From assembly GCA_043803945.1 (NCBI GenBank), contig JAZDJN010000098.1, positions 1 to 64,000 on the forward strand: 64,000 bases of DNA, given 5' to 3'. The number at the start of each line of letters is the position of its first letter. The stretch's first letter is position 1. Origin of the DNA: a bacterium (lineage in GTDB: Bacteria > Bacteroidota > Ignavibacteria > UBA10030). The notes beneath the pieces were generated by a model that searched no databases, had not been told where the DNA came from, and worked only from the letters and a program-made list of their open reading frames with translations. The position numbers and the translations under genes were made by a program. Of the stretch, positions 44,863 through 64,000 are shown in pieces.

Positions 44863-44954
44863 AAAAAAAGAAAGCCACCCATCCCCAACTCTCAAGCTGC
44901 GGGAATTTAGCATACAACTATGATAGGCTTTCGACTATAAAAGGAGAAAGTAAT

Positions 44955-46406: not shown

Positions 46407-46444
46407 TACCGGACTCTACTATAACGGTTTTCGATGTTCCCTGG
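46323..46444 (+). repeat. DGR variable repeat VR1
   Basis: Aligns to TR 47883-48003: about 22 substitutions at TR adenines, 1 non-A change, 1-nt insertion. Confidence 0.95.
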
Positions 46445-46496
46445 ACATTAAGTAACACTTTTTGCTGTTAGCCTTTTACACTTGGGTCGAATAAAA

Positions 46497-46838
46497 ATGG
46501 CTGAAAAAGAGGATGTACTTACCAAGACGTACGATCTGCTTTTATACCTTATCCCTCAGCTTGAGAAGTTTCCAAGAGCCCAGAAATTTCTACTTGCTGA
46601 TCGAATCGAGTTGAAAGTCCTCGATATTTTAGAACGGTTACTTGAGGCATACTATTCCCCTCCAGATGCTAAGATGGTACCATTAAAGAAAGCAAATATC
46701 GAGATTGAGCAATTTCGCTACCTTGTTAGGTTGAGTCATGACCTGGGTTTCTTGAGTCATCAAAAATATGGTATCCTCAGCGAAAAGATTAACGAAGTCG
46801 GAAGAATGGTTGGAGGTTGGATCAAGTCGCTCAAATGA
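46497..46838 (+). CDS. avd: DGR accessory variability determinant (four-helix bundle)
   Basis: 113 aa, KTYDLLLYL..KFPR.QKF.LADRI ... EVGRMVGGWIK; directly upstream of RT. Confidence 0.93.
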   Translation: MAEKEDVLTKTYDLLLYLIPQLEKFPRAQKFLLADRIELKVLDILERLLEAYYSPPDAKMVPLKKANIEIEQFRYLVRLSHDLGFLSHQKYGILSEKINEVGRMVGGWIKSLK

Positions 46839-47983
46839 AAACTCATAAGAACTTGTATATGAAACTTTGTTCGTTTGAGAATTTACTTCTTGCCTCAAGG
46901 AAAGCGAGACTCGGTAAGCGAATGAATACCGATGTCGCTCGATTCGAGATCAACCTCGAACATGAGCTTGTGAATCTTGCAAAGGATCTCCAGGATCAAT
47001 CATATCGACCTGGAGAATACCGTGAGTTTATCATCTCTGAGCCAAAGAAGCGCATGATCAGTGCCGCGCCTTATCGAGATCGAGTGCTTCATCATGCCCT
47101 ATGCAATGTCATTGAGCCAATCTTTGAGCGCACATTTATCTCAGATAGTTATGCTAACCGTAAAGGTAAAGGGACACACAAGGCAATTCTGCGGTACTTG
47201 CAATTCGCCCAACACAACACGTATGCCCTGAAATGCGATATACAGAAGTTCTTCCCAAGCATCGACCATCAACTATTAAAGCAGAACATTCGAAAGAAAG
47301 TAGCTTGCAAGAAAACAATCTGGCTTATTGATACTGTTATCGATCACAGCAACAGGCAAGAAGCTGTCTTGAATTATTATTCTGGTGACTCGCTGTTTAC
47401 GCCATTCGAGCGTCGGAAAGGTTTGCCAATTGGGAACCTGACAAGTCAATTCTTTGCCAATGTCTATCTGAATCCACTGGATCATTTTATTAAGGAAGTA
47501 CTGCAGTGCAAGCATTATATTCGGTATGTCGATGATTTTGTACTCTTCAGTGAAGAGAAACAGCAGCTTCAGCGGTGGAAAGAAGAGATAGAGTCATGGT
47601 TGGAATCACTGCGGCTAACGCTTCATCCAAAGAAGACGAGAGTGTTGCCTGTGAATGTTGGACTTTCATTCCTTGGGCATCGAGTTTTCCCGGAATTTCT
47701 TTTGCTCAACAAGGATAATGTGCTCCGGTTTAAGAGGCGATTGAAGAAGATGAGCGCTGGGCTTGTTTCAGGAAATGTTACCATGGAGCATCATCGATCT
47801 TCGATTGCTAGCTGGGAGGGGCATGCAAAGTTTTCAAATACCTATCGTCTTCGAAAAAAGATTTTTAGGGATGGATCCGAATCAGAACCGTGTGTTGCGG
47901 GGCGGTTCGTGGAACAACAAAACGAACAACCTCCGGACAACGAATCGCAACAGGAACACACCCGAAAACCGAAACAACAATAA
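46835..47983 (+). CDS. DGR reverse transcriptase
   Basis: EPKKR.I.A..YRDRVLHH, KCDIQKFF, GLPIGNLTSQFFANVYL, RYVDDF, FLG; ATGA overlap with the avd stop. Confidence 0.97.
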   Translation: MKTHKNLYMKLCSFENLLLASRKARLGKRMNTDVARFEINLEHELVNLAKDLQDQSYRPGEYREFIISEPKKRMISAAPYRDRVLHHALCNVIEPIFERTFISDSYANRKGKGTHKAILRYLQFAQHNTYALKCDIQKFFPSIDHQLLKQNIRKKVACKKTIWLIDTVIDHSNRQEAVLNYYSGDSLFTPFERRKGLPIGNLTSQFFANVYLNPLDHFIKEVLQCKHYIRYVDDFVLFSEEKQQLQRWKEEIESWLESLRLTLHPKKTRVLPVNVGLSFLGHRVFPEFLLLNKDNVLRFKRRLKKMSAGLVSGNVTMEHHRSSIASWEGHAKFSNTYRLRKKIFRDGSESEPCVAGRFVEQQNEQPPDNESQQEHTRKPKQQ

Positions 47984-48003
47984 CGGTTTTCGATGTTCCC
48001 AGG
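47883..48003 (+). repeat. DGR template repeat (TR), overlapping the 3' end of the RT ORF
   Basis: AAC-rich (about 42 A), reads RVLRGGSWNNKTNNLRTTNRNRNTPENRNNNNGFRCSQ; template for VR1 and VR2. Confidence 0.96.
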
Positions 48004-48165
48004 TCTTTCATCAAGCTGTTGCCAGAGCCTTCCTGTCGATCGACAAGAAGGGAGTGCAGCGGAAAGTCCAGGATCTGTTCCCGTGTTGGTGCAGTCAGCC
48101 AACCGAACACAAAGACCAATTCCGGCGCGGTTGGTAGCTTCGGCGAAGACCGTGCCGGAATGTGG
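48004..48165 (+). ncRNA. Putative structured spacer of the DGR RNA, 3' of TR
   Basis: Non-coding gap after TR with hairpin attccggcgcggt...accgtgccggaat (48119-48161); role inferred from the Bordetella DGR spacer. Confidence 0.5.
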
Positions 48166-48193
48166 ACACTAACAGGATAATCATAGGATTGGA

Positions 48194-50071
48194 ATGATAA
48201 TGAAATCACTTTGCTATAGTATTCTGGCGAGCATTCTTCTCTTCGGTAATCTCCACGCTCAAACCGGCAGGGGTATGAAACCGATCTCCATACAAGATGC
48301 TACCGGTAAAGAAGTAGCAATCTACTCCGGCAGTTTTGCCCTTATTATTGGCATGAGTAATTACAGCCAGGGGTGGCCAAGTCTACCCGGGGTTCAGCGG
48401 GATGCTCAGGCAGTCCGCTCAACTCTCGAAACTCAGGGGTTCCGTGTAGAGGTGAAAATGGATCTGGATAAAGCATCTCTCGATAAAGTAATTTCTGATT
48501 TTATCGCCCGGTATGGAGGCGAGCCGGATCATCGCTTACTCTTCTATTTTGCCGGTCACGGATATACTGTGAAATCCAGCTACGGTGATGAACTCGGATA
48601 TTTTGTACCTGTCGATGCACCCCTCCCACGGAAAGATGTTGGGGCCTTTCAGAGCAAAGCGATGGAGATGGCACAAGTAGAGATCTATGCAAAGCGTATT
48701 CAGTCGAAGCATGCTTTCTTTATGTTCGATGCTTGCTTCTCGGGGTCGCTTTTTGATATTTCTCGCGCTGTTCCCGAGGTCATTTCCTATAAGACATCAC
48801 AGCCGGTTCGGCAGTTTATCACTTCAGGCACTGCTGAAGAAACGGTGCCCGATGTGAGTATTTTCCGATCGCAGTTTGAGCGTGCATTGAAAGGTGAGGC
48901 AGATACGGATAAGGACGGTTACGTAACGGGAACGGAACTAGGGGAGTTTCTCCAAAAAACAGTCATCAATTATTCCCGCAGCAGTCAGCATCCGCGATAT
49001 GGAAAAATCCGCAATCCTAATTTGGACAAAGGAGATTTTGTTTTTACACTGGGAAGTACATCTGAGGCATCACCCTCTCCGACAAAGCTTCCAGACAAAA
49101 CAGATTTTTCCATTGAGAAAGAGAAACGAGAGGCAGAAACTGAGCGCACGGCACGCGATGCATGGGCAAAGAATCTGAAAGAGATGGAGGGAAAATATAA
49201 TGAAGTCATCGAATTAGAAAAGACCGATATCTCCGCGCAGCGTAAAGCAGAGGTGTGGAAGAGGTTCCAGCAGGCGTATGCAGATAATAATCCATATAGC
49301 ACACGTGATGATGAGCTTCGAACCAAGGCGGGAGAGAAAGTATCCTTCTGGAATAGAGATGCAAATAAGCCAGCCGAAAAGAAAGCTGCTAAAAAAGAAA
49401 TATCTTCTCCCGACTTTGGAGCAGATATGGTGTATGTTGATGGTGGTACGTTTACAATGGGGAGTAACGATTATGATGATGAAAAACCACCGCATCAGGT
49501 AACTGTGCGAAACTTTTACATTGATAAATATGAAGTGACTGTTGCGAAGTTTAAGCAATTTGTGGATGCAACAGGCTATAAGACCGACGCAGAAAATGGA
49601 GATGGCAGTTATAAATGGACAGGGTCAACCTATGAGAAGAAAGCGGGTGTTGATTGGCGCTGTGATGAGCAAGGCAATAGAAGATCCGAAAGTCAGTATA
49701 ACCATCCGGTCATTCATGTGAGTTGGAACGATGCCAATGCTTATGCAAGGTGGGCGGGGAAAAGATTGCCAACAGAAGCAGAGTGGGAATTTGCGGCAAG
49801 AGGAGGCACCAAGAGTCGTGGATTTAAATATGCCGGAAGTGATGATGAGAATAGTGTTGCTTGGAATACAAGTAATTCTGGTGGCAAAGTACATCCTGTT
49901 GGCGACAAGTATCCAAATGAACTTGGTATCTATGATATGAGCGGTAATGTATGGGAGTGGTGTGCTGATTGGTACGATGCAACTTATTATAGCAACAGCC
50001 CTGAGATGAATCCAACTGGCCCAACAAGTGGTACTCTCCGTGTGTTGCGGGGCGGTTCGTGGGGCTCCTAA
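48194..50071 (+). CDS. DGR target 2: signal peptide + caspase-like C14 peptidase + helical linker + FGE-sulfatase/CLec domain; premature stop in VR (intact end would be 50165)
   Basis: YFAGHG / FDACF dyad; RLPTEAEWEFAARGG; TAA 50069-50071 at the TR AAA codon; extra G at 50135-50137. Confidence 0.92.
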   Translation: MIMKSLCYSILASILLFGNLHAQTGRGMKPISIQDATGKEVAIYSGSFALIIGMSNYSQGWPSLPGVQRDAQAVRSTLETQGFRVEVKMDLDKASLDKVISDFIARYGGEPDHRLLFYFAGHGYTVKSSYGDELGYFVPVDAPLPRKDVGAFQSKAMEMAQVEIYAKRIQSKHAFFMFDACFSGSLFDISRAVPEVISYKTSQPVRQFITSGTAEETVPDVSIFRSQFERALKGEADTDKDGYVTGTELGEFLQKTVINYSRSSQHPRYGKIRNPNLDKGDFVFTLGSTSEASPSPTKLPDKTDFSIEKEKREAETERTARDAWAKNLKEMEGKYNEVIELEKTDISAQRKAEVWKRFQQAYADNNPYSTRDDELRTKAGEKVSFWNRDANKPAEKKAAKKEISSPDFGADMVYVDGGTFTMGSNDYDDEKPPHQVTVRNFYIDKYEVTVAKFKQFVDATGYKTDAENGDGSYKWTGSTYEKKAGVDWRCDEQGNRRSESQYNHPVIHVSWNDANAYARWAGKRLPTEAEWEFAARGGTKSRGFKYAGSDDENSVAWNTSNSGGKVHPVGDKYPNELGIYDMSGNVWEWCADWYDATYYSNSPEMNPTGPTSGTLRVLRGGSWGS

Positions 50072-50154
50072 GCGGGCTACCTCCGGACCTCGAATCGCGG
50101 CAGGATCACACCCGGGTACCGGGACGGCAGTTACGGGTTTTCGCTGTTCCCTGG
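50036..50154 (+). repeat. DGR variable repeat VR2
   Basis: About 27 substitutions vs TR, all at TR adenines, plus one G insertion. Confidence 0.96.
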
Positions 50155-50243
50155 ACTTTAGATAGCGCTTTTTCCTTTTAGCCTTTTACACTTGGGGGGG
50201 ATTGTGCGGGGAAATTTTTTTGGGGATGGTAGATGGGAATAGT

Positions 50244-50448
50244 TGACTCAACCCCCCTGGCCGGGGCCGTCCAAAAAGAAAAGAACTGTCACACCGGAAT
50301 GTGCCGCTTTACGGCATCTCGTACTGCGGGACTTCAATCCGGTGTCCAGTGCCTTATTTAAGCATTTTTCTTGATTCCGGTTAGAAGATTACCGGAATGA
50401 CAGTGCACTAGTTTTCTTTTTAGACAGCCCCCGGGGGGGATGAGTCAG
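50244..50448. mobile_element. Nested palindromic element B
   Basis: tgactcaacccccc ... ggggccgtccaaaaag [ctgtcacaccggaa...ccggaatgacag] ctttttagacagcccc ... gggggatgagtcag. Confidence 0.75.
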
Positions 50449-50643
50449 ATAAAACCAATGCCATTAAGCGTCGAACCGTTCCTTACGCTATAGTCCTCAA
50501 GAGAGAGGGAACGGTTCGGTCAAAAGATCTTTCAGAAGGCTGAGGTGTATTTATCTGGATGAACATGCCCGGACCTTCTTACCTCGCTGAAGAAAGACAG
50601 GTTATGGAATGAGAAGTTAAGAGAATACATTTAGAGGCCCCAT

Positions 50644-53600
50644 ATGAAATTCCTTACACACCTAATCGCGCTATTCATAGTTCTCTCTCCATTTGCTCAA
50701 GCACAAAAACCGGAGCTGGTAATTCAAACCGGACACACCAACGGGCTCACTTCGGCAGTATTCAGTCGTGATGAAAAGTATGTACTGACGGGGAGTTGGG
50801 ACAACACAGCGAAACTCTGGGATGCCTCAACAGGAAGAGAAATAAGAACATTTGCCGGGCACTCAGAACGCATTTGGTCTGTCGCTATCAGTCCAGATGG
50901 ACGATATGTAGCGACAGGAAGTTATGACAAGACGGCAAAAATCTGGGAGACTTCAACGGGAAAAGAACTGAGGGTATTGACTGGTCATAAGGATGAAGTT
51001 CACTCCGTTTCTTTCAGTCCCGACGGTCAGTATTTAGCAACGGGCAGTTGTGACAAGACAGCGAAGCTATGGGAAACCTCAACGGGAAGAGAAGTAAAGT
51101 CTTTTACTGGACATTCTGAAGACATTTATTGCTTGGCTTTTAGTCCAAATGGACAGTATATGGTGACGGGAAGTTTTGACAAGACCGCAAAACTCTGGGA
51201 GGTATCAACAGGAAAGGAAATGAAGACATTCACTGGACATTCATCCTCGATCAATTCTGTCGCATTCAGTCCTAGTGGACGATATGTGGTAACAGGAAGC
51301 CGGGATAGCACTGCAAGACTATGGGATGTATCCACGGGGAGAGAAGTGAAGACATTGGCAAGGATCTCATCGTGGATTAATTCTGTCGCACTTAGTCCTG
51401 ATGGGATGTATGTGGTGATAGGGAGTTATAATGGAACAATAAAACTGTATGATATCTCTACTGATCAAGAGGTAAGTTCATTTGCCGGACATCCCCTTTC
51501 GGTTACCTCTGTTACTTTCAGTAATAATGGGAAGTACATTCTGTCGGGGAGTTGGGATAGTAAAGCAAAACTTTGGAAGGCATCAACAGGCAGAGAAGTG
51601 ATGAAAATTGCAGGACATTCTTCGGAGATTCGTACAGTCGCATTCAGTTCAGATGGAAGAAATGTGGTAATGGGGAGTGATAGTGTAGCGAAGATTTGGG
51701 AAGCCATGACCGGAAGAGGTTTGCGGGGACTATCTAATCATTCTGGTATCTATTCCGCGGCATTTAGTCAAAATGGGCGGTATGCGGTGACCGGGAGTGT
51801 TGTTAGTGGAATAGCGAGAATCTTCGATGTTTCGACGGGAAGAGAGGTTAGAACATTAACGGGGAAATGGGGCAGCATATATTCCGTAGCCTTCAGCCCC
51901 GATGATCAATATGTAGTAACAGGGAGTATGAATGGGAGAGTAAAACTCTGGGATGTCTCTACAGGAAAAGAGGAGCGAACATTCATAGGTCATTCTGGCG
52001 ATGTCGCTGCAGTAGCGTTCAGTCCTGATGGGCAGATGATTTTGGCGGGGAGCACTCGTGATGTCAAGCTTTGGGATGCATCGACAGGAATAGAAGTGAA
52101 AACTTTGAAAGGTCACAGTAGCCTCATTCGCTCAGTTGCATTCAGCCCCGATGGGAAGGATGTAGTGACTGGAAGCGCAGACAAAACAGCGAAGCTCTGG
52201 GATATCTCAACAGGAGCAGAAGTAAAGACTTTGACCGGCCATTCAGATTGGGTAAATTCCGTTGTATTCAGTTCTGATGGGCGATATCTGGTGACGGGGA
52301 GTTGGGATAAGACTGCGAAACTGTGGGAGGTCTCAACAGGAAAAGAGGTGAGGACATTCATTGGGAGTTCAGGTGGCATCAATTCTGTGGCCTTCAGTCT
52401 GAATGGGAAATATATCGTTGGTGGATGTAAAACTGGCGAGTGCATCATTTGGGATTTGCAGACAGGTATAAAGCTTGCCTCAAGAATTGCACTCGATGAA
52501 AAGGATTGGGTTGTCGTCACTCCGGATGGCCGCTTCGATGCATCGGCAAATGGGATGAAGTTGCTCCACTACGTTCAAGGAATGGAAGTCCTCCCTCTCG
52601 AATCCTTCTTCGAACAATTCTATACACCTAATCTGTTTGCGCGAGTTCTCTCAGGAGAGAAGATCGAAACCACACCCACGGTCGATTTCTCCAAAGCCAT
52701 CAAACTTCCTCCACTCGTAAGGATCGTTTCACCGAAGACAGGAGAGACTTTCACTTCAGATCGAGCTCAAATTAGTGTTGAAGTCACCGATCAGGGTGGG
52801 GGGATCGATGAAATCCGTCTCTATCACAATGGAAAACTTATCTCAGAAGATCAGCGGGGGATGAAGGTCATTGAATCGAAGACAACGAAGATCACAAAGA
52901 CGTTTGATGTCACGCTCCTACCGGGCATCAACGAGTTTAAAATCACAGCCTTCAATATGGAGAGAACCGAATCAGTCCCGGTGTCTCTTTCAATCGAGCT
53001 TACGGCAACGGAAGCTTCAGCAGAACTCTACATACTTGCGATTGGCATCAATCAGTACAAGAACTCAGTGCTCAACCTCAACTATGGAAGGCCGGATGCA
53101 GAAGCATTCTTGCAGGTTGCTGAAAGGAAAGCACGGGGAATATTCAGAGCGATCAAGAAATATGAAGTCTACGATCAACAAGCAACAAAGGTAAACATCG
53201 AAGGCATCTTGACACAGATCATTCAGCTTTCAAAGCCGCAGGATGTATTTCTGTTTTTCTATGCCGGTCATGGAGTGATGAGCGAAGGCGATGCCGCGTT
53301 GAAACCGGATTTCTATCTTATTCCGAGCGATATCACTCAGCTCTATGGGAACGATCGACAGTTAGTCGCTAAGGGAATCTCTGCATCGTTGCTGAAAGAG
53401 CATTGCACGAACATGCGAGCACAGAAGCAACTGGTAGTCATCGATGCCTGTCAGGCTGGAGGTGCAGTGGAGACGTTTGCGATGCGGGGAGCTGCGGAGC
53501 AGAAAGCGATGGCGCAGTTGGCAAGAGCGACAGGAGTTGTCATACTGGCAGCGACGGGCACAGAGCAGTTTGCGACAGAGTTCAAGCAATTGGGTCACGG

Positions 53601-53799
53601 AGTGTTTACCTATGCGTTACTGCAAGGACTCGAAGGAGAAGCCGATGGAAGTCCAAAGGATGGAAAGGTTACGGTGGCAGAGCTGAGAGCGTATCTTGAC
53701 GATCAAATACCTGAGCTGACGAAGAAGTATAGAGGGCAGGCGCAATATCCAGTCGCATATTCAAGAGGAAATGATTTTCCTGTAAGCGCTGGAAGATGA
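50644..53799 (+). CDS. Exported 14x WD40 repeat + Ig-like + caspase-like C14 peptidase
   Basis: Signal peptide (AQA-QK); 14 GH..S.AFSP.G..TGS.D.TAKLWD repeats; FYAGHG / IDACQ dyad; HGVFTYALLQGL. Confidence 0.93.
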   Translation: MKFLTHLIALFIVLSPFAQAQKPELVIQTGHTNGLTSAVFSRDEKYVLTGSWDNTAKLWDASTGREIRTFAGHSERIWSVAISPDGRYVATGSYDKTAKIWETSTGKELRVLTGHKDEVHSVSFSPDGQYLATGSCDKTAKLWETSTGREVKSFTGHSEDIYCLAFSPNGQYMVTGSFDKTAKLWEVSTGKEMKTFTGHSSSINSVAFSPSGRYVVTGSRDSTARLWDVSTGREVKTLARISSWINSVALSPDGMYVVIGSYNGTIKLYDISTDQEVSSFAGHPLSVTSVTFSNNGKYILSGSWDSKAKLWKASTGREVMKIAGHSSEIRTVAFSSDGRNVVMGSDSVAKIWEAMTGRGLRGLSNHSGIYSAAFSQNGRYAVTGSVVSGIARIFDVSTGREVRTLTGKWGSIYSVAFSPDDQYVVTGSMNGRVKLWDVSTGKEERTFIGHSGDVAAVAFSPDGQMILAGSTRDVKLWDASTGIEVKTLKGHSSLIRSVAFSPDGKDVVTGSADKTAKLWDISTGAEVKTLTGHSDWVNSVVFSSDGRYLVTGSWDKTAKLWEVSTGKEVRTFIGSSGGINSVAFSLNGKYIVGGCKTGECIIWDLQTGIKLASRIALDEKDWVVVTPDGRFDASANGMKLLHYVQGMEVLPLESFFEQFYTPNLFARVLSGEKIETTPTVDFSKAIKLPPLVRIVSPKTGETFTSDRAQISVEVTDQGGGIDEIRLYHNGKLISEDQRGMKVIESKTTKITKTFDVTLLPGINEFKITAFNMERTESVPVSLSIELTATEASAELYILAIGINQYKNSVLNLNYGRPDAEAFLQVAERKARGIFRAIKKYEVYDQQATKVNIEGILTQIIQLSKPQDVFLFFYAGHGVMSEGDAALKPDFYLIPSDITQLYGNDRQLVAKGISASLLKEHCTNMRAQKQLVVIDACQAGGAVETFAMRGAAEQKAMAQLARATGVVILAATGTEQFATEFKQLGHGVFTYALLQGLEGEADGSPKDGKVTVAELRAYLDDQIPELTKKYRGQAQYPVAYSRGNDFPVSAGR

Positions 53800-53925
53800 G
53801 AGTAAGATCCCCTGAGCGAGCTAGTCGTTGGGCGAGTCGAAGGGGAGGGTGAGAGTGTATGAGAATAAAATCCCCTGAGCGAGCCAGTCGTTGGGCGAGT
53901 CGAAGGGGAGGGGGAGAATATGAGA
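53797..53925 (+). repeat. Two tandem CCCCTGAGCGAG...GAGTCGAAGGGG REP-like units
   Basis: Direct tandem copies about 61 bp apart; third copy at 44178. Confidence 0.87.
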
Positions 53926-54026
53926 TGGGGCGAGGAGATGAGATATTACCGATTTCCAATTTCCGAGTTTCGATTGGAATGCAAGAGTGTATGAGCGTAA
54001 GCAAAGAATGCAGATTGGAAAATTCT

Positions 54027-54572
54027 ATGTCGAATACAACTTCAATTCTCGGGCTCTTGGATGCCCTGCAATTCGCGGCTGAGAAGCACAGCCGTCAGCG
54101 AAGAAAAGATGCCGATGCCTCTCCGTATATCAACCATCCTATTGCCGTCGCGGCGAGTCTAGCCCGGTGCGGTGTCTCCGATCTTGTCACGCTGCAGGCA
54201 GCAATTCTTCATGATACGATTGAGGATACGAAAACCACTCCTCCAGAACTAGAAGGGCGGTTTGGAAAAGACGTAACAGCGATTGTCCAGGAGCTCACGG
54301 ATGATAAACAGTTGCCGAAAGAAAAGCGAAAGCAGCGGCAGATTGAACACGCACCATTGATATCTGCAAAGGCAAAGTCGATTAAGATCGCCGACAAGAT
54401 TAGCAATGTGCACGACATTATTTATACACCGCCGAGGTTCTGGAGCAGGAGGGAAAAGAAGAAATACCTTGAGTTTACAGAACAGGTGGTAAAAGGCTGT
54501 CGGGGAGTAAACAAGGAACTTGAGAATGAGTTTGATAAATATCTTGAAGAGGCAGGAAAAAGTCTGAAATAA
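54027..54572 (+). CDS. HD-domain protein, Mesh1/small alarmone hydrolase-like
   Basis: ALQFAAEKH..QRRK...PYINHP, AAILHDTIEDT, ELTDDK, KIADK; ATG 54027 preferred because the upstream extension is repeat-derived. Confidence 0.88.
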   Translation: MSNTTSILGLLDALQFAAEKHSRQRRKDADASPYINHPIAVAASLARCGVSDLVTLQAAILHDTIEDTKTTPPELEGRFGKDVTAIVQELTDDKQLPKEKRKQRQIEHAPLISAKAKSIKIADKISNVHDIIYTPPRFWSRREKKKYLEFTEQVVKGCRGVNKELENEFDKYLEEAGKSLK

Positions 54573-54587
54573 AGGCAGTCCAAAATG

Positions 54588-54611
54588 TAGGACGAGTTGC
54601 CAACTCGTCCA
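54588..54611 (+). repeat. GTAG-type REP palindrome
   Basis: GTAG-GACGAGTTGCCAACTCGTCC; related GTAGGTCGAGCAGCCTGCTCGACC at about 55672. Confidence 0.65.
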
Positions 54612-54691
54612 CAGTGAGCATGCGAATATTCAATGTATTGTGCTCACTTGAATAGTGAATCATGAAGTCCAATAATAAATAGGGTGCAATT

Positions 54692-55567: not shown

Positions 55568-55585
55568 GGATAAAAGAAAATTTTT

Positions 55586-55806
55586 TGACTCAACCCCGAA
55601 TCCTGAGGCTGTCCCAAAAGTCTTCTTTTGACTCTCTGGGTGCGGTAAAACGTTTGATTTTCGTAAGTCTCGTAGGTCGAGCAGCCTGCTCGACCAACAT
55701 TTTGAACAGCCTCGGTACCTGGAATGATGAGCATCATTGAAGACAACTTCTGCCAAGTGTACAAAGAAAGCTCTGTACTCCCCTTCTCATGGCAAAGAGA
55801 AGGGTT
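55586..55806. mobile_element. Nested palindromic element C (degenerate right end)
   Basis: tgactcaacccc; inner IR gaggctgtcccaaaag / ttttgaacagcctc holding a GTAG REP; hairpin ccccttctc...gagaaggg. Confidence 0.65.
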
Positions 55807-55877
55807 TGGAATAAACCTTCGGTGCAAAGTGTAAGTTGTAAGGAATTAAGCAGAATGCAGGGTAAAAAGGATATCGA

Positions 55878-57356
55878 ATGAAAAGATATATATCGCTCTT
55901 GATAATTCTGATGTTTATAGCAGTAAAGCTTTGGCCACAGGATCTCTCAGAGTTACGAATTGCAGGGAAAGGAGAATACCTCAAATCGGAGCTTATTAAT
56001 AAAGCCGTAAGAGATGCCAATGGTATTGTCTGTGCCGGGTTGATGATCCTCTCCGATCTCGATGGATTAAGTTATGAATCTAATAATGGCGTAGTGAAAA
56101 TTAATCGGAGCCCTGGAAAAGATCTGCTCTTTCTCTCGCCGGATGAGCGTATGGTGACAGTGTTGAAAACGGGCTATAAGCCGTTGAAGGTGATCATTAA
56201 TGAGTTTGGCATCAAGTTCGCAAGCGGCACAGTGTGGAAGCTTGAGGTAACAGGGAGTAAAAAAGTTGAACAGGTCCCGATTGTTGTTCGAGTTGATCCA
56301 TCAGACGCAGTTATCATACTTGATAGCGTTTCGGTTACGAGTGGTAGACCAATTACCGTTCAAGAAGGAAAGCATACCGTAAAGATTCTCAGAGATGGAT
56401 ATAGATCTGTAACCGAACAAATCACTGTCTCACCAAAAGAGAGAGAATTCCCTTTCACATTGAAGAAAGATAAAGTCAGCCTGAATGTACTCGTTTATCC
56501 TGCTGATGCATCGGTAGCAGTCGATAGTATTTCACTCATTTCAGGAAGAGGATTCCCGACAGAAATTGGTCTTCATAAGCTCAGAATAGAGAGAGATGGA
56601 TATGAACCTGAGATGCACGATATAGAGGTATCGAAAATAAATAATTCGTTTTCCTATCAACTCAGGAAGAAAAAGTACACAATAAGTATTATTGGAGATC
56701 CATCCGATGCAATAATGAGTGTCGACTCAATCAGAGTACAGGGAAACACCACTGTAGCAGAATGGGGTTACCATGTGCTCCGGGTTGAAAATAGCGGATA
56801 CGAATCTCTCTCGAAAGAGATCGAAGTGATGTCGAAGCAAACATCATTTTCTTACTCACTAAACAAAATTCGTACTTACAGCTTTGAGGTAAGCTCGGGA
56901 ATTGGATTCATAGCGCTTGAGGGAAAGCCTAAAAGTCCACCGCCAATTCTCTCTTTTCAATACAGGCTCTCGAATATGTTTACTATCGAGTTAGCAGGTG
57001 GTAGCGTTGATGCAGGAGACTCCATCAAGTATGACAACTTCACATTTGGGTATCTGTCGAACAAATATACCATTGTGAGCTTAAGGGGACGTATCAATAT
57101 TTATCAGACAGGATCTTTGGAAACGTATGTAGGAGCATGCATCACCTTTGTGTTAAACGACAGAACATTCACTTCTTTGCCACTCAATAACAGTTCAACG
57201 AGATATTATGACTCTTATATGAATAGTGATGTTGATAGATTATTTGGAGGCGGATTTATTGGGGCTCGTTATTGGGTATTCAATAAATTCGGTCTTGTCC
57301 TAGAGACTGGACATCACTTTATAAATTTGCGTGCTGGAATTACATTCACATTCTAA
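55878..57356 (+). CDS. Exported PEGA-repeat protein with probable C-terminal outer-membrane beta-barrel
   Basis: Three V.P.DA...D...G.H.L.I...GY repeats; amphipathic beta C-terminus ending ITFTF. Confidence 0.72.
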   Translation: MKRYISLLIILMFIAVKLWPQDLSELRIAGKGEYLKSELINKAVRDANGIVCAGLMILSDLDGLSYESNNGVVKINRSPGKDLLFLSPDERMVTVLKTGYKPLKVIINEFGIKFASGTVWKLEVTGSKKVEQVPIVVRVDPSDAVIILDSVSVTSGRPITVQEGKHTVKILRDGYRSVTEQITVSPKEREFPFTLKKDKVSLNVLVYPADASVAVDSISLISGRGFPTEIGLHKLRIERDGYEPEMHDIEVSKINNSFSYQLRKKKYTISIIGDPSDAIMSVDSIRVQGNTTVAEWGYHVLRVENSGYESLSKEIEVMSKQTSFSYSLNKIRTYSFEVSSGIGFIALEGKPKSPPPILSFQYRLSNMFTIELAGGSVDAGDSIKYDNFTFGYLSNKYTIVSLRGRINIYQTGSLETYVGACITFVLNDRTFTSLPLNNSSTRYYDSYMNSDVDRLFGGGFIGARYWVFNKFGLVLETGHHFINLRAGITFTF

Positions 57357-57365
57357 TGAGGAGCT

Positions 57366-59207
57366 ATGAAAAAGTGCTCAATCATTTTATTCCTTTTTAC
57401 TGTCGGTTCACAACTCCTTTTCTCTCAGACTGTATTAAAGGATACCATTAAACAATCTAACCGCTACTATTATGGCGAGGGAATTGCCGAGAATGAAACT
57501 GAAGCTTCCAATTCTGCACTCGCTCGCCTGACCCAGCATATCGCCGTGACAGTCTCTTCCACGTTTCAGAGCGATCAATTTGAGGATAAAAACAATTATC
57601 AACAGACTGTCCGGCAGGTGGTCGAAACCTATTCAGTGGCATCGCTGAGTAATTTTCATACCCTCCGAAACCAGCAAGGTAGCAAGATTGAAATTTTTCA
57701 TTACATCGAGAAGAAAGAGGTAGAAAAAATATTCCACGGGCGCATACAGCTTGTGCGAAATATCATTGAGCGGGCGAAGGAATTTGAAGCCGAGCTCAAT
57801 CTTGGCAATGCGTTGAAATGGTACTACTTCGCTTCCATACTTCTGAACTCGGTGCCGGCGCAGTTCATCGAGCAGGAGGGGAAAGTACTTATTACGGAAA
57901 TACCCTCCCGCATCACGAAAATCCTCCAGAGCGTGCGTTTGTCGTTAATTGAAGATCGCCATGTTTCTGAGAAGGAGAGGGTGCTTGTATTTTCGGTGAG
58001 ATCAAACGATCTGCCGGCGCAATCCATTGAGTTATTGTTTTGGGATGGTTCGGGGTATGGCAAGATGCAGGCTGCCGATGGGGAAGCGAGTATACAACTT
58101 TATGGTTCAGCCATTGGAATGACAAAGCTCGATCTCCAGATCAAATACAGCTACGATGATTGCCGGGATGAGATTAAAGAAGTGGGTGACCTCTGGAATG
58201 TGGTTAAAAAACCATCCTATAAAAATACGCAGCAGATTGATTTGGTATCGAAACCGGCAGTGAAGAAATCCGAGCCGGTTAAAAGTAAGCCGATGGTTAT
58301 TGAGAAGACAGGTCATTTCAGTATGAGATTATTTTCGAAGGAACAGGCGCCTGTTGTTGAAACGATACGGAAAGAGGCAGGCGGGGTTCTCGATCTTCTC
58401 GCTGAGCGACAGGTGGATGCAATAAAGAAGTTCTTTACGAAAGATCAGTTCCTCCAACGTAAAGTCCTCGATATACTGCAATACAATAATCTCACAATAC
58501 TCGACACACTGATTGATGCCAATATCAATAAAACAGCTATGGGCTGGGAACTCCGCCGCATCCGTACGCTTGCTTACTACCCTACATTACGGAAGCAGTC
58601 CTTAGAGTATTTGATCTTAGATTTTGATACGGAAGGCAAATTATACGATCTAAATTTTGGCATTACGGATACTCTGTATCGCTTGTTTGTCGAGCAGGCT
58701 TCGTACGGCCAGGATTGGGGGAACCGACAGGTGATAATCAAATTTGCTGAGAGATACCGGACAGCGTTTCTCAGCAGGGACATCAACATGCTCGATTCGC
58801 TCTTTGCCGATGAGGCAGTGATAATTATAGGCCGGGAGTTAAAGAAAACAAAAGTGAAGGATATCTATGGCTTTACTCCTTCAAGCACTGCACAGCCCGA
58901 TTATTCCTATACGCAGTACACGAAGAAGCAATATCTGAAGAACCAGAACGAAGTCTTCAAGAGGCAGAAAGATCTTTATGTCGGATTCTCGACATTTAAA
59001 ATCAATAGAAAAAACGATTCGGCGGGGACTTATGGACTGAGCATGAGGCAGCATTATAATTCCACAACCTATGCGGATGAGGGGTACCTGTTTTTGCTGG
59101 TAGATTTCAATGAAGATCTGCCGCAGATTTATGTACGAACCTGGCAGCCGCATGAATGGAACGATGAGGCGCTTTACAAATTGTCGAATTTCAAGTTAAA
59201 TCGTTGA
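57366..59207 (+). CDS. Exported LPP20-like + NTF2-like domain protein
   Basis: Signal peptide; YYYGEG...EA...ALA.L...I.V.VSS; C-terminal F.ERYRTAF..D...DSLFADEAVIIIG ... IYVRTWQP. Confidence 0.62.
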   Translation: MKKCSIILFLFTVGSQLLFSQTVLKDTIKQSNRYYYGEGIAENETEASNSALARLTQHIAVTVSSTFQSDQFEDKNNYQQTVRQVVETYSVASLSNFHTLRNQQGSKIEIFHYIEKKEVEKIFHGRIQLVRNIIERAKEFEAELNLGNALKWYYFASILLNSVPAQFIEQEGKVLITEIPSRITKILQSVRLSLIEDRHVSEKERVLVFSVRSNDLPAQSIELLFWDGSGYGKMQAADGEASIQLYGSAIGMTKLDLQIKYSYDDCRDEIKEVGDLWNVVKKPSYKNTQQIDLVSKPAVKKSEPVKSKPMVIEKTGHFSMRLFSKEQAPVVETIRKEAGGVLDLLAERQVDAIKKFFTKDQFLQRKVLDILQYNNLTILDTLIDANINKTAMGWELRRIRTLAYYPTLRKQSLEYLILDFDTEGKLYDLNFGITDTLYRLFVEQASYGQDWGNRQVIIKFAERYRTAFLSRDINMLDSLFADEAVIIIGRELKKTKVKDIYGFTPSSTAQPDYSYTQYTKKQYLKNQNEVFKRQKDLYVGFSTFKINRKNDSAGTYGLSMRQHYNSTTYADEGYLFLLVDFNEDLPQIYVRTWQPHEWNDEALYKLSNFKLNR

Positions 59208-59246
59208 GGGTGGGTTGTTGATTGGAGGTGACGAGTTGGTTAGGAT

Positions 59247-59456
59247 GGACTCATCCCTGCCTGCCCGCTAGGGCCTGCAGGCGGCAGGCAGGCCCCCGGC
59301 GAGGCTATCCAAAAAGAGCCTTTGTCATTTCGATCCCGATTTATCGGGAGAGAAATCTTGCTTTTTGTTTAGATTTCTCAGTTGCTGCGCGCCTTCGAAA
59401 TGACAAAACGGTCTTTTTGGTCAATCCCTGAGGGGATGAGTCAGGCAATACCAACA
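59247..59456. mobile_element. Nested palindromic element D
   Basis: ggactcatccc + CCTGCC/GGCAGG insert + gaggctatccaaaaag [gtcatttcga...tcgaaatgac] ctttttggtcaatccc + ggggatgagtcag. Confidence 0.78.
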
Positions 59457-59663
59457 CCATACTTCCCCGACTCTCAAGCTCTCGAATGATAAAATGAACA
59501 GATGGACGCAGAAACCTTCCGAAGGTCTATAGAGTACAACGAGAAACCTTCGGAAGGTTATGCAGGCTTGAAAAGAAGTCCCTCGTTCTAATGAATTGTC
59601 AATTCCCTTGCGGAATGATACGCAATTAATTATAATATATTGCGTATAGAACCGACAAACATT

Positions 59664-60794
59664 ATGATACCTCGAATCTTACAATCGAAAATCAAACAAA
59701 GACTCTTTAAAGGAAAAGCAATTATCCTCTACGGCCCTCGACAAGCTGGTAAAACGACTCTGGTAAAAAACCTGCTCAGTGATCTGAAATTAAGCTCGAT
59801 TGTATTTGATGGTGATGAAGCCGATATACGGGAAGTGCTTACTAACACGACATCGACCAAATTAAAATCGCTGGTGGGAAAAAATAGAATTGTCTTCATC
59901 GATGAAGCTCAGCGAATTCCAGGGATAGGGCTCACCATGAAGCTGTTTACAGATAAGCTCTCTGATGTACAACTAATAGCTTCTGGGTCGTCTGCATTTC
60001 AACTTGCATCACAGTCGAGCGAGGCACTTACAGGGAGAAAATATGAGTTTGTCCTTTACCCACTTTCCTTTGGAGAGCTTGCCGGTGCTCAAAGCATCCT
60101 GGAAGAGAAACGGGTGCTTGACCATCGGCTGATCTTCGGATCATATCCGGAGATTGCGACACATCCCGGTGAAGAGAGGGAGCTTCTTAAGCTTTTAGTT
60201 CAGAGTTATTTGTATAAGGATGTTCTCTCGTACGAGCGTTTATCAAAGCCGGCAGTTCTTGAAAAGCTTGTCCGTGCACTGGCTTTGCAGGTAGGCAGCG
60301 AGGTATCATATCGTGAACTTGGCCAACTCATTGGTATCGATAACGAGACAGTGGAGAGATATATCGACATGCTCGAAAAGTGCTACGTGCTTTTCCGTCT
60401 TCCTTCCTACAGCCGTAATGTTCGGAACGAAATTAAGAAAGGTAAAAAAATATACTTTTTCGACACAGGTGTACGAAATGCAATTCTCGGTCATTATTCC
60501 ATGCTGCATTCGCGCAGCGATACCGGAGCGCTCTGGGAGAATTATCTGATAGTAGAGCGGATGAAAACTCTTGCTTACCGGGGGAGCGATGCACGCTCCT
60601 TTTTCTGGCGTACGGCACAACAGCAGGAGATTGATTATGTAGAAGAGGAGGAGGGCCGGTTGAGAGCGTTCGAATTCAAATGGAACCGAAAGGCAAAACC
60701 AAAGGTTCCGAAAACATTTACATCAAGCTACCCTGGTTCGGCGACTTCACTGGTAACTCCGGAAACCTATGACTCATTTCTCACTGGTGACTAA
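59664..60794 (+). CDS. AAA_14 ATPase with DUF4143/PD-(D/E)XK-like C-terminus
   Basis: GPRQAGKTT, FIDEAQ, SGSS, LTGRK, KIYFFDTG, LWEN, QEIDYV...FEFKW. Confidence 0.9.
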   Translation: MIPRILQSKIKQRLFKGKAIILYGPRQAGKTTLVKNLLSDLKLSSIVFDGDEADIREVLTNTTSTKLKSLVGKNRIVFIDEAQRIPGIGLTMKLFTDKLSDVQLIASGSSAFQLASQSSEALTGRKYEFVLYPLSFGELAGAQSILEEKRVLDHRLIFGSYPEIATHPGEERELLKLLVQSYLYKDVLSYERLSKPAVLEKLVRALALQVGSEVSYRELGQLIGIDNETVERYIDMLEKCYVLFRLPSYSRNVRNEIKKGKKIYFFDTGVRNAILGHYSMLHSRSDTGALWENYLIVERMKTLAYRGSDARSFFWRTAQQQEIDYVEEEEGRLRAFEFKWNRKAKPKVPKTFTSSYPGSATSLVTPETYDSFLTGD

Positions 60795-60837
60795 TTGCAT
60801 TTTGCTGAGAGTAGGAGAAAGATTTGAGCTATAAACT

Positions 60838-60993
60838 GGGGCTGTCTAAAAAGAGCCTTTGTCATTTCGATCCCGATTTATCGGGAGAGAAATCTTGCTT
60901 TTTGTTTAGATTTCTCAGTTGCTGCGCGCCTTCGAAATGACAAAACGGTCTTTTTGGTCAACCCCTGAGGGGATGAGTCAGACAATACCAAAG
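60838..60993. mobile_element. Nested palindromic element E, near-identical direct repeat of the core of D
   Basis: About 150 bp almost identical to 59301-59456. Confidence 0.82.
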
Positions 60994-61095
60994 CCATTGA
61001 GCATCGAACCGTTCCCTGCGCTATAGGCCTCAAGAGAGAGGGAACGGTTCGGTTACAAGATTCTTCGGAAAGTGTCACGGTGTAAAAGAAAATGA

Positions 61096-61149
61096 TAGAA
61101 GTCCGTCTTTTTCCGTTGGTTACTCTCTGGTAAAAGACGGACTTCTACC
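61096..61149. repeat. REP-like palindrome AGAAGTCCGTCTTTT...AAAAGACGGACTTCT (copy 1)
   Basis: 16-bp IR; direct copy at 63424-63477. Confidence 0.85.
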
Positions 61150-61172
61150 AGAATAGGAAGGAGCGAAGAGGT

Positions 61173-63161
61173 TTGAAATATTCTATCAAACTAATCGGCA
61201 TTGTTTCCTTTTCATTTATTATCCTCTCTCTTTTCCAAAGCTGTACGGAAAAAGAGTTTAACAATCCTGTTGATCCGAATGTAAAGATTCTGCCTCCTAC
61301 AAACCTCCTGCTTTCCCTTACGACCGATACATCTGCGACAATAAGCTGGAGCGACCCAAATAACTTTTCTCTTGAACAGCAGAAGAGTATTCGATATGAG
61401 ATACAACAGAGCACAGACCAGAATACTTACACGCCAGTAAAATCTGTACAAGGGGATACGACATCTGTTATTATAAGAGGTACATTCCTTTCAACGAATT
61501 CTTATTACTTCAGGATAAAAGCTGTTGCGGGTATTAATGCTTCCGGGTATGCAGATGCTGTGAGTGGAAGTATTACCTTTTCAGCCCCAACGAATGTTCA
61601 GGTGACAGCGATAACAGAGACACGAGCTACAGTAACTTGGGCGTTGAACAATCCAATTGCCACGATGGTGATGATTGAGCGAAGCGCTAATGCAATGATA
61701 GGATTTGTACTCGTTGATAGTGCGACCGCTTCAAACAATTCAAAGTTAGTAACAGGAAGATATAGTGCTGATAGTACTTATTATTTCAGGATACAGGCGA
61801 AATCCAATATCAATAAGAGTGTCTACTCGGCAGTAGCTTCAAACCAATATGTATTTTCGGCACCAACAAACCTTACAATATCCTCATTGACAGAGACACA
61901 GGCAACATTAAGTTGGGCACTTAACAATCCACTTGCAACGATCGTGATGATCGAGCGGAGCACTGCTGCTTCTTCCGGCTATAGAGCCGTTGATAGTGTC
62001 TCAGCGAGCCTAACGACAAAAGGGATAGTTGGTATTTATTGTACGGACTCGACATATTATTTCCGTCTTAAGACAAAGTCATCCATCAATCAAAGTAGTT
62101 ACACACCCGCGGTTTTACAGAAACTTCTGTTCCCAGCCCCTTCCAATCTTCTGGTAACTTCATTTTCAGCTACATCTGCTTCTTTACAGTGGAAGGATAA
62201 TAGCTCGTTTGAGACAGGATTTGAAATCAACTCTGGAATCGACAGTACAAATCTATCTCTCATAAAAACTGAGCTAGCAAATTCAACTGCATCAGTGATT
62301 AATAGTGCGTTTGATATTAAGAAAGTCTACTATTTCCGTGTCCGTGCAAAGTCTTTATATAACATTTCAGCTTTCTCATCTGCTGAGATTGCTCCCCTTG
62401 TTCCCACAGGTATGGTTTTTATTAAAGGCAGTACATTCACTGCAAACTCTACTCCGATTACTATCAGCAGTTTCAATATAGACCAATATGAAGTGACGTA
62501 CGAGCTTTGGACCGATGTAAGAAATTGGGGATTGACACATGGCTATACCGATTTGCCTTCGGGACGAAATGGCTACAATCCAATTGGAACAAACAATCCC
62601 GTCACAGAGGTAAACTGGTATGACATCGTTAAATGGTGCAATGCCCGTTCGGAAAAAGATGGCTTGACACCTGTATATTATACAAACAGCTCACAGAACA
62701 CAGTCTATCGCACAGGTCAAACAGATATTAATAATGATGCGGTGAAATGGACGGCAAATGGCTATCGTCTACCGACGGAAGCAGAGTGGGAGTATGCAGC
62801 CCGTGGAGGAATCCAAACGCATGGATACACCTACAGTGGCAGCAACACGATAGAGGACGTGGCATGGTATAATTCAAACTCTCCAAACAACACCCATCCC
62901 GTTGGACAAAAGAGTACAAACGAGCTTTGTATTTATGATATGAGCGGGAATGTATGGGAGTGGTGCTGGGACTGGCATGGGTCTACATATCCCTCAGGTG
63001 GGACTATGGATCCGAAAGGACCCTCGACAACCCAATCGTACCGTTTGCTGCGTGGCGGTTCTTTCGACGGCAGCGAGTACGTCTGTCGGGTAGTCATCCG
63101 CAGCTACAACCTCCCTTCCGGCTGCAACTTCTTTTACGGTTTCCGATGTGTCCAGGATTAA
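61173..63161 (+). CDS. Lipoprotein with FN3-like repeats + FGE-sulfatase/CLec domain; probable target of a second DGR
   Basis: Lipobox FQSC; repeated (A/P)P(T/S)N(L/V)...YYFR units; YRLPTEAEWEYAARGG; NNC-codon-rich 3' end ending YGFRCVQD; TTG start. Confidence 0.88.
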   Translation: MKYSIKLIGIVSFSFIILSLFQSCTEKEFNNPVDPNVKILPPTNLLLSLTTDTSATISWSDPNNFSLEQQKSIRYEIQQSTDQNTYTPVKSVQGDTTSVIIRGTFLSTNSYYFRIKAVAGINASGYADAVSGSITFSAPTNVQVTAITETRATVTWALNNPIATMVMIERSANAMIGFVLVDSATASNNSKLVTGRYSADSTYYFRIQAKSNINKSVYSAVASNQYVFSAPTNLTISSLTETQATLSWALNNPLATIVMIERSTAASSGYRAVDSVSASLTTKGIVGIYCTDSTYYFRLKTKSSINQSSYTPAVLQKLLFPAPSNLLVTSFSATSASLQWKDNSSFETGFEINSGIDSTNLSLIKTELANSTASVINSAFDIKKVYYFRVRAKSLYNISAFSSAEIAPLVPTGMVFIKGSTFTANSTPITISSFNIDQYEVTYELWTDVRNWGLTHGYTDLPSGRNGYNPIGTNNPVTEVNWYDIVKWCNARSEKDGLTPVYYTNSSQNTVYRTGQTDINNDAVKWTANGYRLPTEAEWEYAARGGIQTHGYTYSGSNTIEDVAWYNSNSPNNTHPVGQKSTNELCIYDMSGNVWEWCWDWHGSTYPSGGTMDPKGPSTTQSYRLLRGGSFDGSEYVCRVVIRSYNLPSGCNFFYGFRCVQD

Positions 63162-63240
63162 ATTTATACTTTAACACTTTTACGCTTTTACACTTTAAAA
63201 CGCGTGTACAATATTTTAAAAAACAATTACAGAGGAGGAT

Positions 63241-63385: not shown

Positions 63386-63423
63386 AAACATTATCGATTG
63401 TTGATGAACTAATGAAAATAAGA

Positions 63424-63998: not shown

Positions 63999-64000
63999 AC

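Follow-up and report, generated by a model that had tools for sequence, protein, structure and literature searches.

In DGR biology the main open step is how the mutagenised cDNA reaches and replaces VR but leaves TR intact; retrohoming is stated to be unresolved in an account that also reports a preference of the cDNA for the lagging-strand template (PMC12875486). In the target site of the Bordetella phage BPP-1 DGR, a hairpin/cruciform stands behind an IMH (GC14 plus 21 bp) (Guo et al., 2011; PMC3240598). The inverted repeat of the BPP-1 type is GC-rich, has a stem of 7–10 bp and a 4-nt GRNA loop, and lies 4–34 bp from VR (PMC3240598). The hairpin is the one known accessory signal, present in only about a third of DGRs: because a confident inverted repeat was found in 127 of 372 systems, its absence must be regarded as common (Wu et al., 2018; PMC5758913). 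The same survey holds that recognition must involve sequence further downstream in systems whose IMH and IMH* are equal.

Two other described systems bear on the locus studied here. The DGR of Trichodesmium erythraeum serves 12 VRs with a conserved 3′ stretch of 35 bp that homing is thought to need (Pfreundt et al., 2014; PMC4143802), and in multicellular bacteria a DGR lineage has been reported whose targets are putative antigen sensors (bioRxiv 10.1101/2023.09.22.558884). In a search of the main text of openly accessible papers, we found no account of a periodic direct-repeat array behind VR, the element that we describe below.

Results

The window, a 64,000-nt stretch of bacterial contig JAZDJN010000098.1, carries a complete DGR comprising bAvd, RT, TR and two VRs. 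The features referred to in the text are as follows.

44790..46455, + strand: target gene 1, caspase plus FGE-sulfatase/CLec domain (Pfam PF00656, PF03781)
about 46327–46445, + strand: VR1 (TR/VR1 alignment with 22 mismatches at TR adenines, 2 others and 1 gap)
46455..46486, + strand: array 1 behind VR1, four ~8-nt units with cores at 46458, 46465 (degenerate), 46473 and 46481
46497..46838, + strand: bAvd accessory gene (Pfam PF22296 bAvd, E 9.7e-20)
46817..47885, + strand: DGR reverse transcriptase (Pfam RVT_1, E 2.1e-28), its ORF running on into TR to 47983
47886..48004, + strand: template repeat (TR), in frame, Asn/AAC-rich, with GFRC codons at its end and no array behind it
48194..50165, + strand: target gene 2, caspase plus FGE-sulfatase (Pfam)
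about 50037–50155, + strand: VR2 (against TR, 26 adenine mismatches, 1 other and 1 gap)
50166..50196, + strand: array 2 behind VR2, four units with cores at 50168, 50175, 50183 and 50191
61173..63161, + strand: fn3 plus FGE-sulfatase gene with a diverged VR-like end (Pfam)
63162..63200, + strand: array 3, four units with cores at 63169, 63177, 63185 and 63193
63241..63351, + strand: avd remnant, 36 codons and then a stop (tblastn, 58% identity to Avd residues 1–36, E 1.4e-8)

Both VRs of the window, which are hairpin-less, underwent adenine-specific rewriting in the past. In the assembly each also has a premature stop, as well as 1 nt inserted with respect to TR, so the DGR may not be active today: the frame of target gene 1 is broken by a TGA at 46404–46406 together with the inserted nucleotide, and VR2 has a TAA at 50069–50071, where the TR codon is AAA. 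A look for public sequencing runs, with VR heterogeneity and these stops in mind, found none listed. The end common to VR and TR (the GFRC codons) is T-rich, and an AGTYCAG motif lies downstream of TR. Array 1 is followed by the avd ATG, at 46497; behind array 2 there is a G-rich tract and a T-run, and no avd. The closest relatives of the window RT share 46–62% identity with it, and all adjoin TR/VR pairs. The window also encodes a 1051-aa WD40 protein.

A first-pass annotation of this DNA had described an identical sequence behind VR1 and VR2 whose core recurs behind the 61173 gene, starts 36 nt past a conserved Cys codon in all three genes, lies within ~8-nt periodic pyrimidine repeats and is missing behind TR and behind the 54692 gene. 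Each of these observations is borne out. The window has just two exact matches to the 19-mer TTAGCCTTTTACACTTGGG, at 46468–46486 and 50178–50196 (expected matches, 0.01), and exact copies of the 11-mer CTTTTACACTT start at 46473 (46473–46483, within array 1), 50183 and 63185. The Cys codons end at 46437, 50147 and 63149, and comparison with the motif starts therefore places CTTTTACACTT at +36 nt in three of three cases. One-mismatch copies at 63169 and 63177 make the 8-nt period visible, and the flanks of TR (47886–48004) and of the 54692 gene lack the motif. VR1 and VR2 are recent paralogues, so their motif identity is by descent; more independent support comes from the diverged 61173 gene and from a fourth paralogue on contig C16, whose version of the motif is one base shorter and begins at the same offset. 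Genome-wide (5,540,506 bases, ~5.54 Mb, both strands), CTTTTACACTT has nine exact copies, three behind the three FGE-sulfatase/C-type-lectin genes of the window and six that are not behind FGE-type gene ends. A scan of the same genome with a strict array pattern returned 10 matches, 3 of them behind GFR-type gene ends.

The annotation had also taken the signal to be a fixed 11-mer at a fixed distance, and here our reading departs from it. In the L013 orthologue of the 61173 gene, CTTTTACACTT lies 8 nt closer than in the window, and the 11-mer is about one and a half units (one full unit and the start of the next) of a tandem array. This array starts just past the stop codon of VR-bearing target genes, has a period of ~8 nt and a pyrimidine-rich unit consensus, RCYCTTTW on the coding strand, and comprises 2–7 units, about four in the window.

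We then compared 91 loci (the window, 10 from an order-level RT search, and 80 further RT relatives), which yielded 69 TRs and 71 unique VR flanks. At least three phased cores are present in 57 of the 71 VR flanks, in 0 of the 69 TR flanks and in 270 of 3550 shuffled VR flanks (7.6%), counts that overstate independence because related loci share ancestry. Autocorrelation gives the same picture: among the 66 VR flanks with a stop codon in the tail, the best lag is 7, 8, 9, 15 or 16 in 65, and TR flanks are flat. Fewer than three units were scored in 14 of 71 VR flanks, several of which show variant cores (ATTT, TTCT) missed by the criterion, and one more distant DGR (L030) has no array. Carriers span at least nine phylum-level labels at RT identities of 46–62%: Cyanobacteria, Bacteroidota, Planctomycetota, Verrucomicrobia, Nitrospirae, a Heliomicrobium label, Deltaproteobacteria/Desulfobacteraceae, Desantisbacteria and Zhuqueibacterota. 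The array is also found at remote second VRs without an adjacent avd (for example window VR2, L046, L047, L054, L067, L098, L103 and L116). No CTTT array is present behind undiversified FGE-sulfatase genes of the same taxonomic family, including 54692, C95 and C91 in the window's own genome.

These comparisons bear on whether the window copies are alike merely through duplication of paralogous gene ends together with their flanks. VR1 and VR2 are clear duplicates, identical over a 19-nt block, and the C16 and 61173 genes belong, as paralogues, to one domain family. Such a hitch-hiking relic is nonetheless highly improbable: the stop codon shifts between 12, 15 and 18 nt past the Cys codon in four paralogues while the cores stay put, and neutral non-coding DNA would not hold period and core at 46–62% RT identity behind differing coding tails. 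We interpret the array as what appears to be a conserved part of the target-site module in one widespread DGR lineage, whose targets are FGE-sulfatase/C-type-lectin proteins ending in GFRC-like codons.

The core sequence varies by subclade (CTTT, TCTG, CTCGG), and hence no one sequence for a reader to recognise is common to all DGRs. A resemblance of the unit to the Gly-Phe-Arg codons at the VR end looked plausible in two lineages, is contradicted by the TCTG subclade and was rejected. Paralogous VRs within one genome can have different numbers of units (7 versus 5 in L061, 5 versus 6 in L064), and across 57 pairs the median distance from the end of TR/VR homology to the array is 8 nt. Position at this junction, unequal unit number and subclade-specific cores are all features that a functionless by-product of homing could have, such as a slippage-prone scar that arises when the 5′ end of the cDNA is repeatedly joined imprecisely or the 3′ junction of VR is repaired. 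We regard such a scar as unlikely, given that different phyla, with RTs about 50% identical, keep the unit consensus RCYCTTTW, that arrays persist behind the DGR-less 61173 and C16 genes, and that we found no unit-like sequence near TR to seed scars.

The element had further been proposed to stand in place of a GC hairpin. For the window the absence of a hairpin holds: the 95 nt past the three gene ends fold no better than shuffles (z-scores −0.38, +1.03 and +0.19), and no GC-rich stem of at least 5 bp lies within 140 nt of them. In the relatives, however, a perfect GC stem of at least 6 bp lies past the array in 25 of 71 VR flanks, a criterion that undercounts hairpins; stems of at least 5 bp are present in 41 of 71, against a high background of 33 of 69 TR flanks. 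The relatives' hairpins lie about 40–120 nt past the Cys codon, with the array in between, and have loops of mostly 3 nt. A T-run of at least six follows array and hairpin in 53 of 71 VR flanks; the gap between stem and T-run is short and in many cases reads CGA (20 of 71). In this clade, then, the array accompanies the hairpin and does not replace it, the three window copies having lost or lacking one, and the full module is ordered as VR, a short TR-identical stretch, the array, and then often a GC hairpin and T-run.

The T-run is terminator-like, which raises the question of gene expression: the array might act in 3′-UTR stability or termination of the target mRNA, or as a pyrimidine-rich leader for avd translation. 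The avd start lies about 10–25 nt past the array in window VR1, L012, L014, L114 and the first VR of L116, and in genome G130 a non-DGR FGE gene is followed by an unrelated 8-nt array and then a Shine-Dalgarno sequence. Yet the array is kept at remote VRs without avd and is lacking at undiversified FGE genes, and it is common to phyla whose promoters, terminators and translation signals differ greatly; since it is found across phyla at 46–62% RT identity, host-specific expression signals would not be expected to span its range. The three motifs themselves show no sigma-70-like promoter (two hexamers, 16–18 nt spacing, at least 9 of 12 matches), 5 promoter-like sites being present in 46300–50500 where 5.6 are expected by chance. 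No intrinsic terminator, defined as a GC-rich stem directly before a T-run, was found at 46456–46500 or 50166–50240, and Rfam 15 covariance models gave 0 matches over 44000–64000 at E up to 1. We therefore rejected a promoter, a terminator or a curated RNA family as the identity of the motif, and consider an expression role distinctly improbable.

We also looked for complementarity of the array or flank to the 300–400 nt either side of TR and found none beyond shuffles. Between the 44 nt past the stop and TR ± 400 nt, the longest Watson-Crick complement averages 7.6, versus 7.5 when shuffled, and 0 of 66 flanks beat all 30 shuffles; with G-T wobble allowed and the flank set against 300 nt, 1 of 71 (leader) and 2 of 71 (spacer) exceed 20 shuffles. 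These tests are crude and score contiguous runs only. RNA-guided recognition of the array was rejected, complementarity in contiguous runs being no better than in shuffles.

The 61173 gene had been counted as a third VR of the window DGR. Over 119 aligned columns its end differs from the window TR by 27 adenine and 24 non-adenine mismatches, and its closest orthologue, at locus L013, stands beside a DGR of its own. Because of the 24 non-adenine mismatches and the truncated avd behind it, this gene is the relic of another, decayed DGR and not a target of the window TR. What endures of the first-pass reading is a VR-flank-specific element; the fixed 11-mer, the replacement of the hairpin and the third target do not.

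Discussion

The VR-only location of the array, its onset just past the homology and its conservation at ~50% RT identity are the properties expected of a recipient cis mark. Since VR and TR agree as far as the end of the GFRC codons and what TR first lacks is the array, we propose that the array may be a VR-specific cis element for retrohoming that marks the recipient, a role that we hold to be the likeliest and to which we give an even chance. The annotation had called the motif a different cis target-recognition signal: specificity to VR flanks, absence from TR and conservation in the clade agree with this, and the role in homing, like the reader of the array and the state of the strand, is something that we infer from these patterns.

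Under this proposal, the coding strand would be exposed, probably as lagging-strand template, and the exposed array would be read unit by unit by the RT-Avd particle or a host protein. Such reading would direct or stabilise the joining of the mutagenised cDNA 5′ end at VR and not at TR. Among the observations that count against a recipient mark are the VR flanks with fewer than three units and the subclade differences in core sequence; the 8-nt period, moreover, does not match the DNA helical repeat and suggests no known binding geometry, and the variation in unit number between paralogous VRs also fits a neutral slippage-prone repeat. In a more specific and speculative form, which we think improbable, the array would serve as a ruler on the coding strand in its single-stranded state, with four to five units of 8 nt read one per subunit by the pentameric Avd of an RT-Avd-cDNA particle, and the array, not the hairpin, would separate recipient VR from donor TR in this lineage. 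If the ruler reading were true, remote targets could be predicted from their sequence, and adding an array to a chosen gene could direct such a DGR to it.

A VR-specific, clade-wide and easily recognised array is a concrete candidate for the missing target signal, and the lineage concerned is common among multicellular or filamentous bacteria, including cyanobacteria and Bacteroidota. The array may improve the prediction of remote targets, and its role is directly testable by deletion, re-phasing and transplantation in a reconstituted system.

Compared with BPP-1 as described in the report cited above (PMC3240598), the window element is alike in being a cis element directly 3′ of VR, present behind each VR and not at TR, and many relatives of the window DGR share the GC-rich hairpin. 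It is unlike the BPP-1 inverted repeat in being a direct, pyrimidine-rich tandem array; the window VR end is T-rich instead of carrying a 14-bp GC block, and the three window copies have no hairpin. The relatives' hairpins also differ from the BPP-1 type, lying ~40–120 nt past the Cys codon as against 4–34 bp from VR, with loops mostly of 3 nt as against 4-nt GRNA. The window presents the situation in which IMH equals IMH* in the survey of Wu et al. (2018), whose passages on IMH, cruciform and tandem repeat describe no direct-repeat array (PMC5758913).

The Trichodesmium erythraeum DGR, a cyanobacterial system, resembles that of the window in general kind, with many remote FGE/CLec-type targets and a conserved 3′ stretch; this 35-bp stretch is common to VR and TR, and a VR-only periodic array goes unmentioned in the parts of that report drawn on here (PMC4143802). 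The work on antigen-sensor DGRs concerns target function and, in the portions considered, describes no cis element behind VR (10.1101/2023.09.22.558884). The targets in that lineage join a C-type-lectin end to caspase-type peptidases and have WD40/STAND-like neighbours, and the window matches them with its caspase plus FGE targets and its 1051-aa WD40 protein.

The window encodes a complete DGR with two rewritten targets

The window carries a complete diversity-generating retroelement (DGR):

44790-46455, target 1, caspase + FGE-sulfatase domain
46497-46838, bAvd
46817 to about 47885, reverse transcriptase (RT)
47886-48004, template repeat (TR), rich in Asn codons
48194-50165, target 2

The variable repeats at the 3' ends of the two targets, VR1 and VR2, mismatch the TR at 22 and 26 of its adenines but at only 2 and 1 other positions, respectively, each with one gap column; this TR therefore templated the rewriting of both. 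Compared with the in-frame TR, each VR in this assembly also has one extra nucleotide, and each contains a premature stop (TGA at 46404-46406 in VR1, created with an inserted T; TAA at 50069-50071 in VR2, at TR codon AAA), so that the conserved GFRC codons are out of frame. These stops may be real DGR-made nonsense alleles, or a mixed population may have produced them as artefacts of the consensus. The interval 50644-54572, which separates the DGR from the 54692 gene (an FGE-sulfatase gene of the window), encodes a 1051-aa WD40-repeat protein and an HD-domain protein; with the caspase-lectin targets, these neighbors fit the 'conflict system' neighborhoods described for this DGR lineage.

A periodic array lies at a fixed distance behind three gene ends

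The first-pass annotation had reported a 19-mer shared by the VR1 and VR2 flanks, with an 11-mer core recurring behind the 61173 gene, another FGE-sulfatase gene of the window. This observation is correct and beyond chance. The 19-mer has exactly two window copies (46468-46486 and 50178-50196; 0.01 expected), and the 11-mer, CTTTTACACTT, is found exactly at 46473, 50183 and 63185. Because the conserved Cys codons (TGT) of the three gene ends terminate at 46437, 50147 and 63149, the 11-mer starts at +36 nt in all three, the constant spacing originally proposed. The reported periodicity is also present, with one-mismatch copies of the 11-mer at 63169 and 63177, 8 nt apart.

Read in register, each window flank comprises about four units, each roughly 8 nt long, with CTT cores 19/20, 27, 35 and 43 nt after the Cys codon behind VR2 and the 61173 gene; the VR1 array has a VR2-like layout with one unit degenerate. 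The 11-mer is the third unit plus the beginning of the fourth. Stop codons lie 18, 18, 12 and 15 nt past the Cys codon in target 1, target 2, the 61173 gene and a paralogue on contig C16. Across this genome (118 contigs, 5,540,506 bases, both strands) there are 9 exact copies of the 11-mer, and none of the remaining six follows an FGE-type gene. A strict array pattern matches 10 times, three of them behind GFR-type gene ends; its reversed control matches 5 times.

The 61173 gene is a relic of a second DGR

The 61173 gene had been counted as a third VR, but its 27 adenine and 24 non-adenine mismatches to the window TR contradict its being a target of that TR. It is left over from a second DGR, of which both the RT and the TR have been lost. 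Behind it, at 63241-63351, a truncated avd retains the first 36 codons (58% identical to intact Avd, E 1.4e-8), and its orthologue in another genome of the same order (locus L013) adjoins its own RT and TR.

The C16 paralogue encodes caspase and FGE-sulfatase domains with no RT nearby; its motif is one base shorter than the window copies, with the start offset unchanged. Behind its array (locus L009, about 7060-7460, minus strand) are two tandem VR/TR-like end remnants; both encode GFRLVQDLK and then a stop, and behind each is a perfect hairpin (13-bp stem, 5-nt loop). No RT was evident near them. Contig C64 (about 690-4600, locus L123) holds a second, divergent DGR-like locus in this genome, with a TCTG-type 8-nt array at an FGE-type gene end, an Avd-like match directly behind (E 0.013) and, about 2.5 kb away, a weak RT match (E 1.7e-4). 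A small palindromic element with a long internal hairpin and inverted ends carrying GACTCA then a C run occurs at about 50240-50450, 55570-55640 and 63690-64000 in the window and at about 6860-7040 in L009. Its copies, dispersed around the DGR targets, resemble a MITE family that may have disrupted the second DGR.

The array is specific to VR flanks across related DGRs

An order-level RT search found matches in 30 of 277 genomes, and a species-level scan (one genome per species), with a six-RT alignment as query, added 80 loci whose identity is 46-62%. A scripted TR/VR search of 90 loci plus the window yielded 69 TRs and 72 VR candidates; setting aside the 54692 gene as a control, adding VR1 and VR2 (both frame-broken) manually and removing identical flanks left 71 unique VR flanks. 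Immediately past the stop codon, nearly all have tandem repeats of an approximately 8-nt unit, 2 to 7 per flank.

Periodicity of 3' flanks (loci share ancestry; counts are non-independent trials)
Best autocorrelation lag (of 3-16) equal to 7, 8, 9, 15 or 16, 48 nt after stop: VR flanks 65/66; TR flanks and shuffled VR flanks scattered across all lags
At least three cores in a chain, spacing 6-10 nt: VR 57/71; TR 0/69; shuffled VR 270/3550

The motif's absence behind the TR and the 54692 gene, noted in the first pass, is borne out: no TR flank has an array by the three-core measure, and no CTTT array follows the 54692 gene. No CTTT array was found behind FGE-sulfatase genes lacking a diversified end in 31 genomes from this taxonomic family; the array-free genes of this genome include the 54692, C95 and C91 genes. 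In genome G074, which has a related RT, both VRs carry the array. Behind a non-DGR FGE-sulfatase gene of G130 (L126), five 8-nt units with an ATCACA core lead directly into a ribosome-binding site; 8-nt arrays of other sequence therefore occur outside DGRs in this bacterial family.

The unit consensus is RCYCTTTW (n = 238 units), and the coding strand of the array is 53% T, 27% C, 12% A and 8% G. The core is TCTG, with the period unchanged, in a subclade whose TR precedes the RT (L015, L073, L087, L095, L112, L113), and CTCGG in a more distant DGR (L019); another distant DGR, L030, has no array. Carriers span at least nine phylum-level labels. VR1 and VR2 are recent duplicates of each other, and the array might merely hitch-hike with duplicated gene ends, which we consider very improbable: unconstrained non-coding sequence would not retain period and core at such divergence.

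A hairpin often follows the array, though not in the window

As first annotated, no hairpin is evident in the three window flanks, which fold no better than shuffles and contain no GC-rich stem of at least 5 bp within 140 nt of the gene ends. The proposal that the array stands instead of a hairpin holds for the window but not for the lineage. Perfect GC-rich stems of at least 6 bp follow the array in 25/71 VR flanks versus 8/69 TR flanks (at least 5 bp: 41/71, 33/69 and 168/1420 shuffles), and T-runs of at least 6 occur in 53/71 versus 5/69; the lineage module is therefore an array, often a hairpin, then a T-run.

Of this module the window has only the array, as do several relatives whose avd starts right behind it (L012, L014, L114 and the first VR of L116). 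The array could be a 3'-UTR or avd-leader expression element, a reading that suits this placement but that we regard as improbable given its restriction to diversified gene ends. In hairpin-less remote VRs (window 50194-50240; L130 and L140 of G074), the array passes into a G-rich stretch in which several runs of 4-7 G occur, followed in the window by a T-run. This stretch may take the hairpin's place as a G-quadruplex-type structure. TR flanks have a motif of their own, AGTYCAG, a median of 71 nt after the TR Cys codon (42/69 TR flanks versus 0/71 VR flanks), with sites noted at about 48050-48080 in the window and within the TR 3' flanks of L012-L120; it is probably part of a structured spacer RNA priming reverse transcription.

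Discussion

The array is VR-specific and conserved, and it sits where the VR ceases to resemble the TR, starting a median of 8 nt beyond the end of TR/VR homology (57 pairs). Such a position could also reflect a slippage-prone scar from imprecise junction repair, an unlikely explanation, if the least unlikely of the alternatives. Both hairpin-less window VRs were rewritten in the past. We infer that the array marks the recipient; the first-pass interpretation, a cis signal for target recognition, is partly supported.

For a reconstituted Bordetella phage element, the available text of PMC12875486 describes the stem-loop as helpful but not essential, leaves the integration step unresolved, and reports that editing favors targets in which the lagging-strand template is the strand complementary to the cDNA. 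Because of these findings, we propose that the array acts on the exposed coding strand. Poor in G and A, the array cannot self-fold; RT-Avd or a host protein would read it, as a site for landing or discrimination. Pairing of DGR RNA with the VR flank found no support, contiguous complementarity to the 300-400 nt on either side of the TR being no greater than in shuffles.

In the openly accessible literature searched, we found no description of a periodic direct-repeat array behind a VR. In the portion of Wu et al., 2018 (PMC5758913) available to us, confident inverted repeats are reported in only 127 of 372 DGRs, and where IMH equals IMH* recognition must reach downstream. The DGR target sites described in the available part of Guo et al., 2011 (PMC3240598) have hairpins 4-34 bp from the VR, with 7-10-bp stems and GRNA loops, whereas the window flanks have no such stem. 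The array is putatively one more component of the DGR target site; it is clade-wide and, in the window, occurs without a hairpin.
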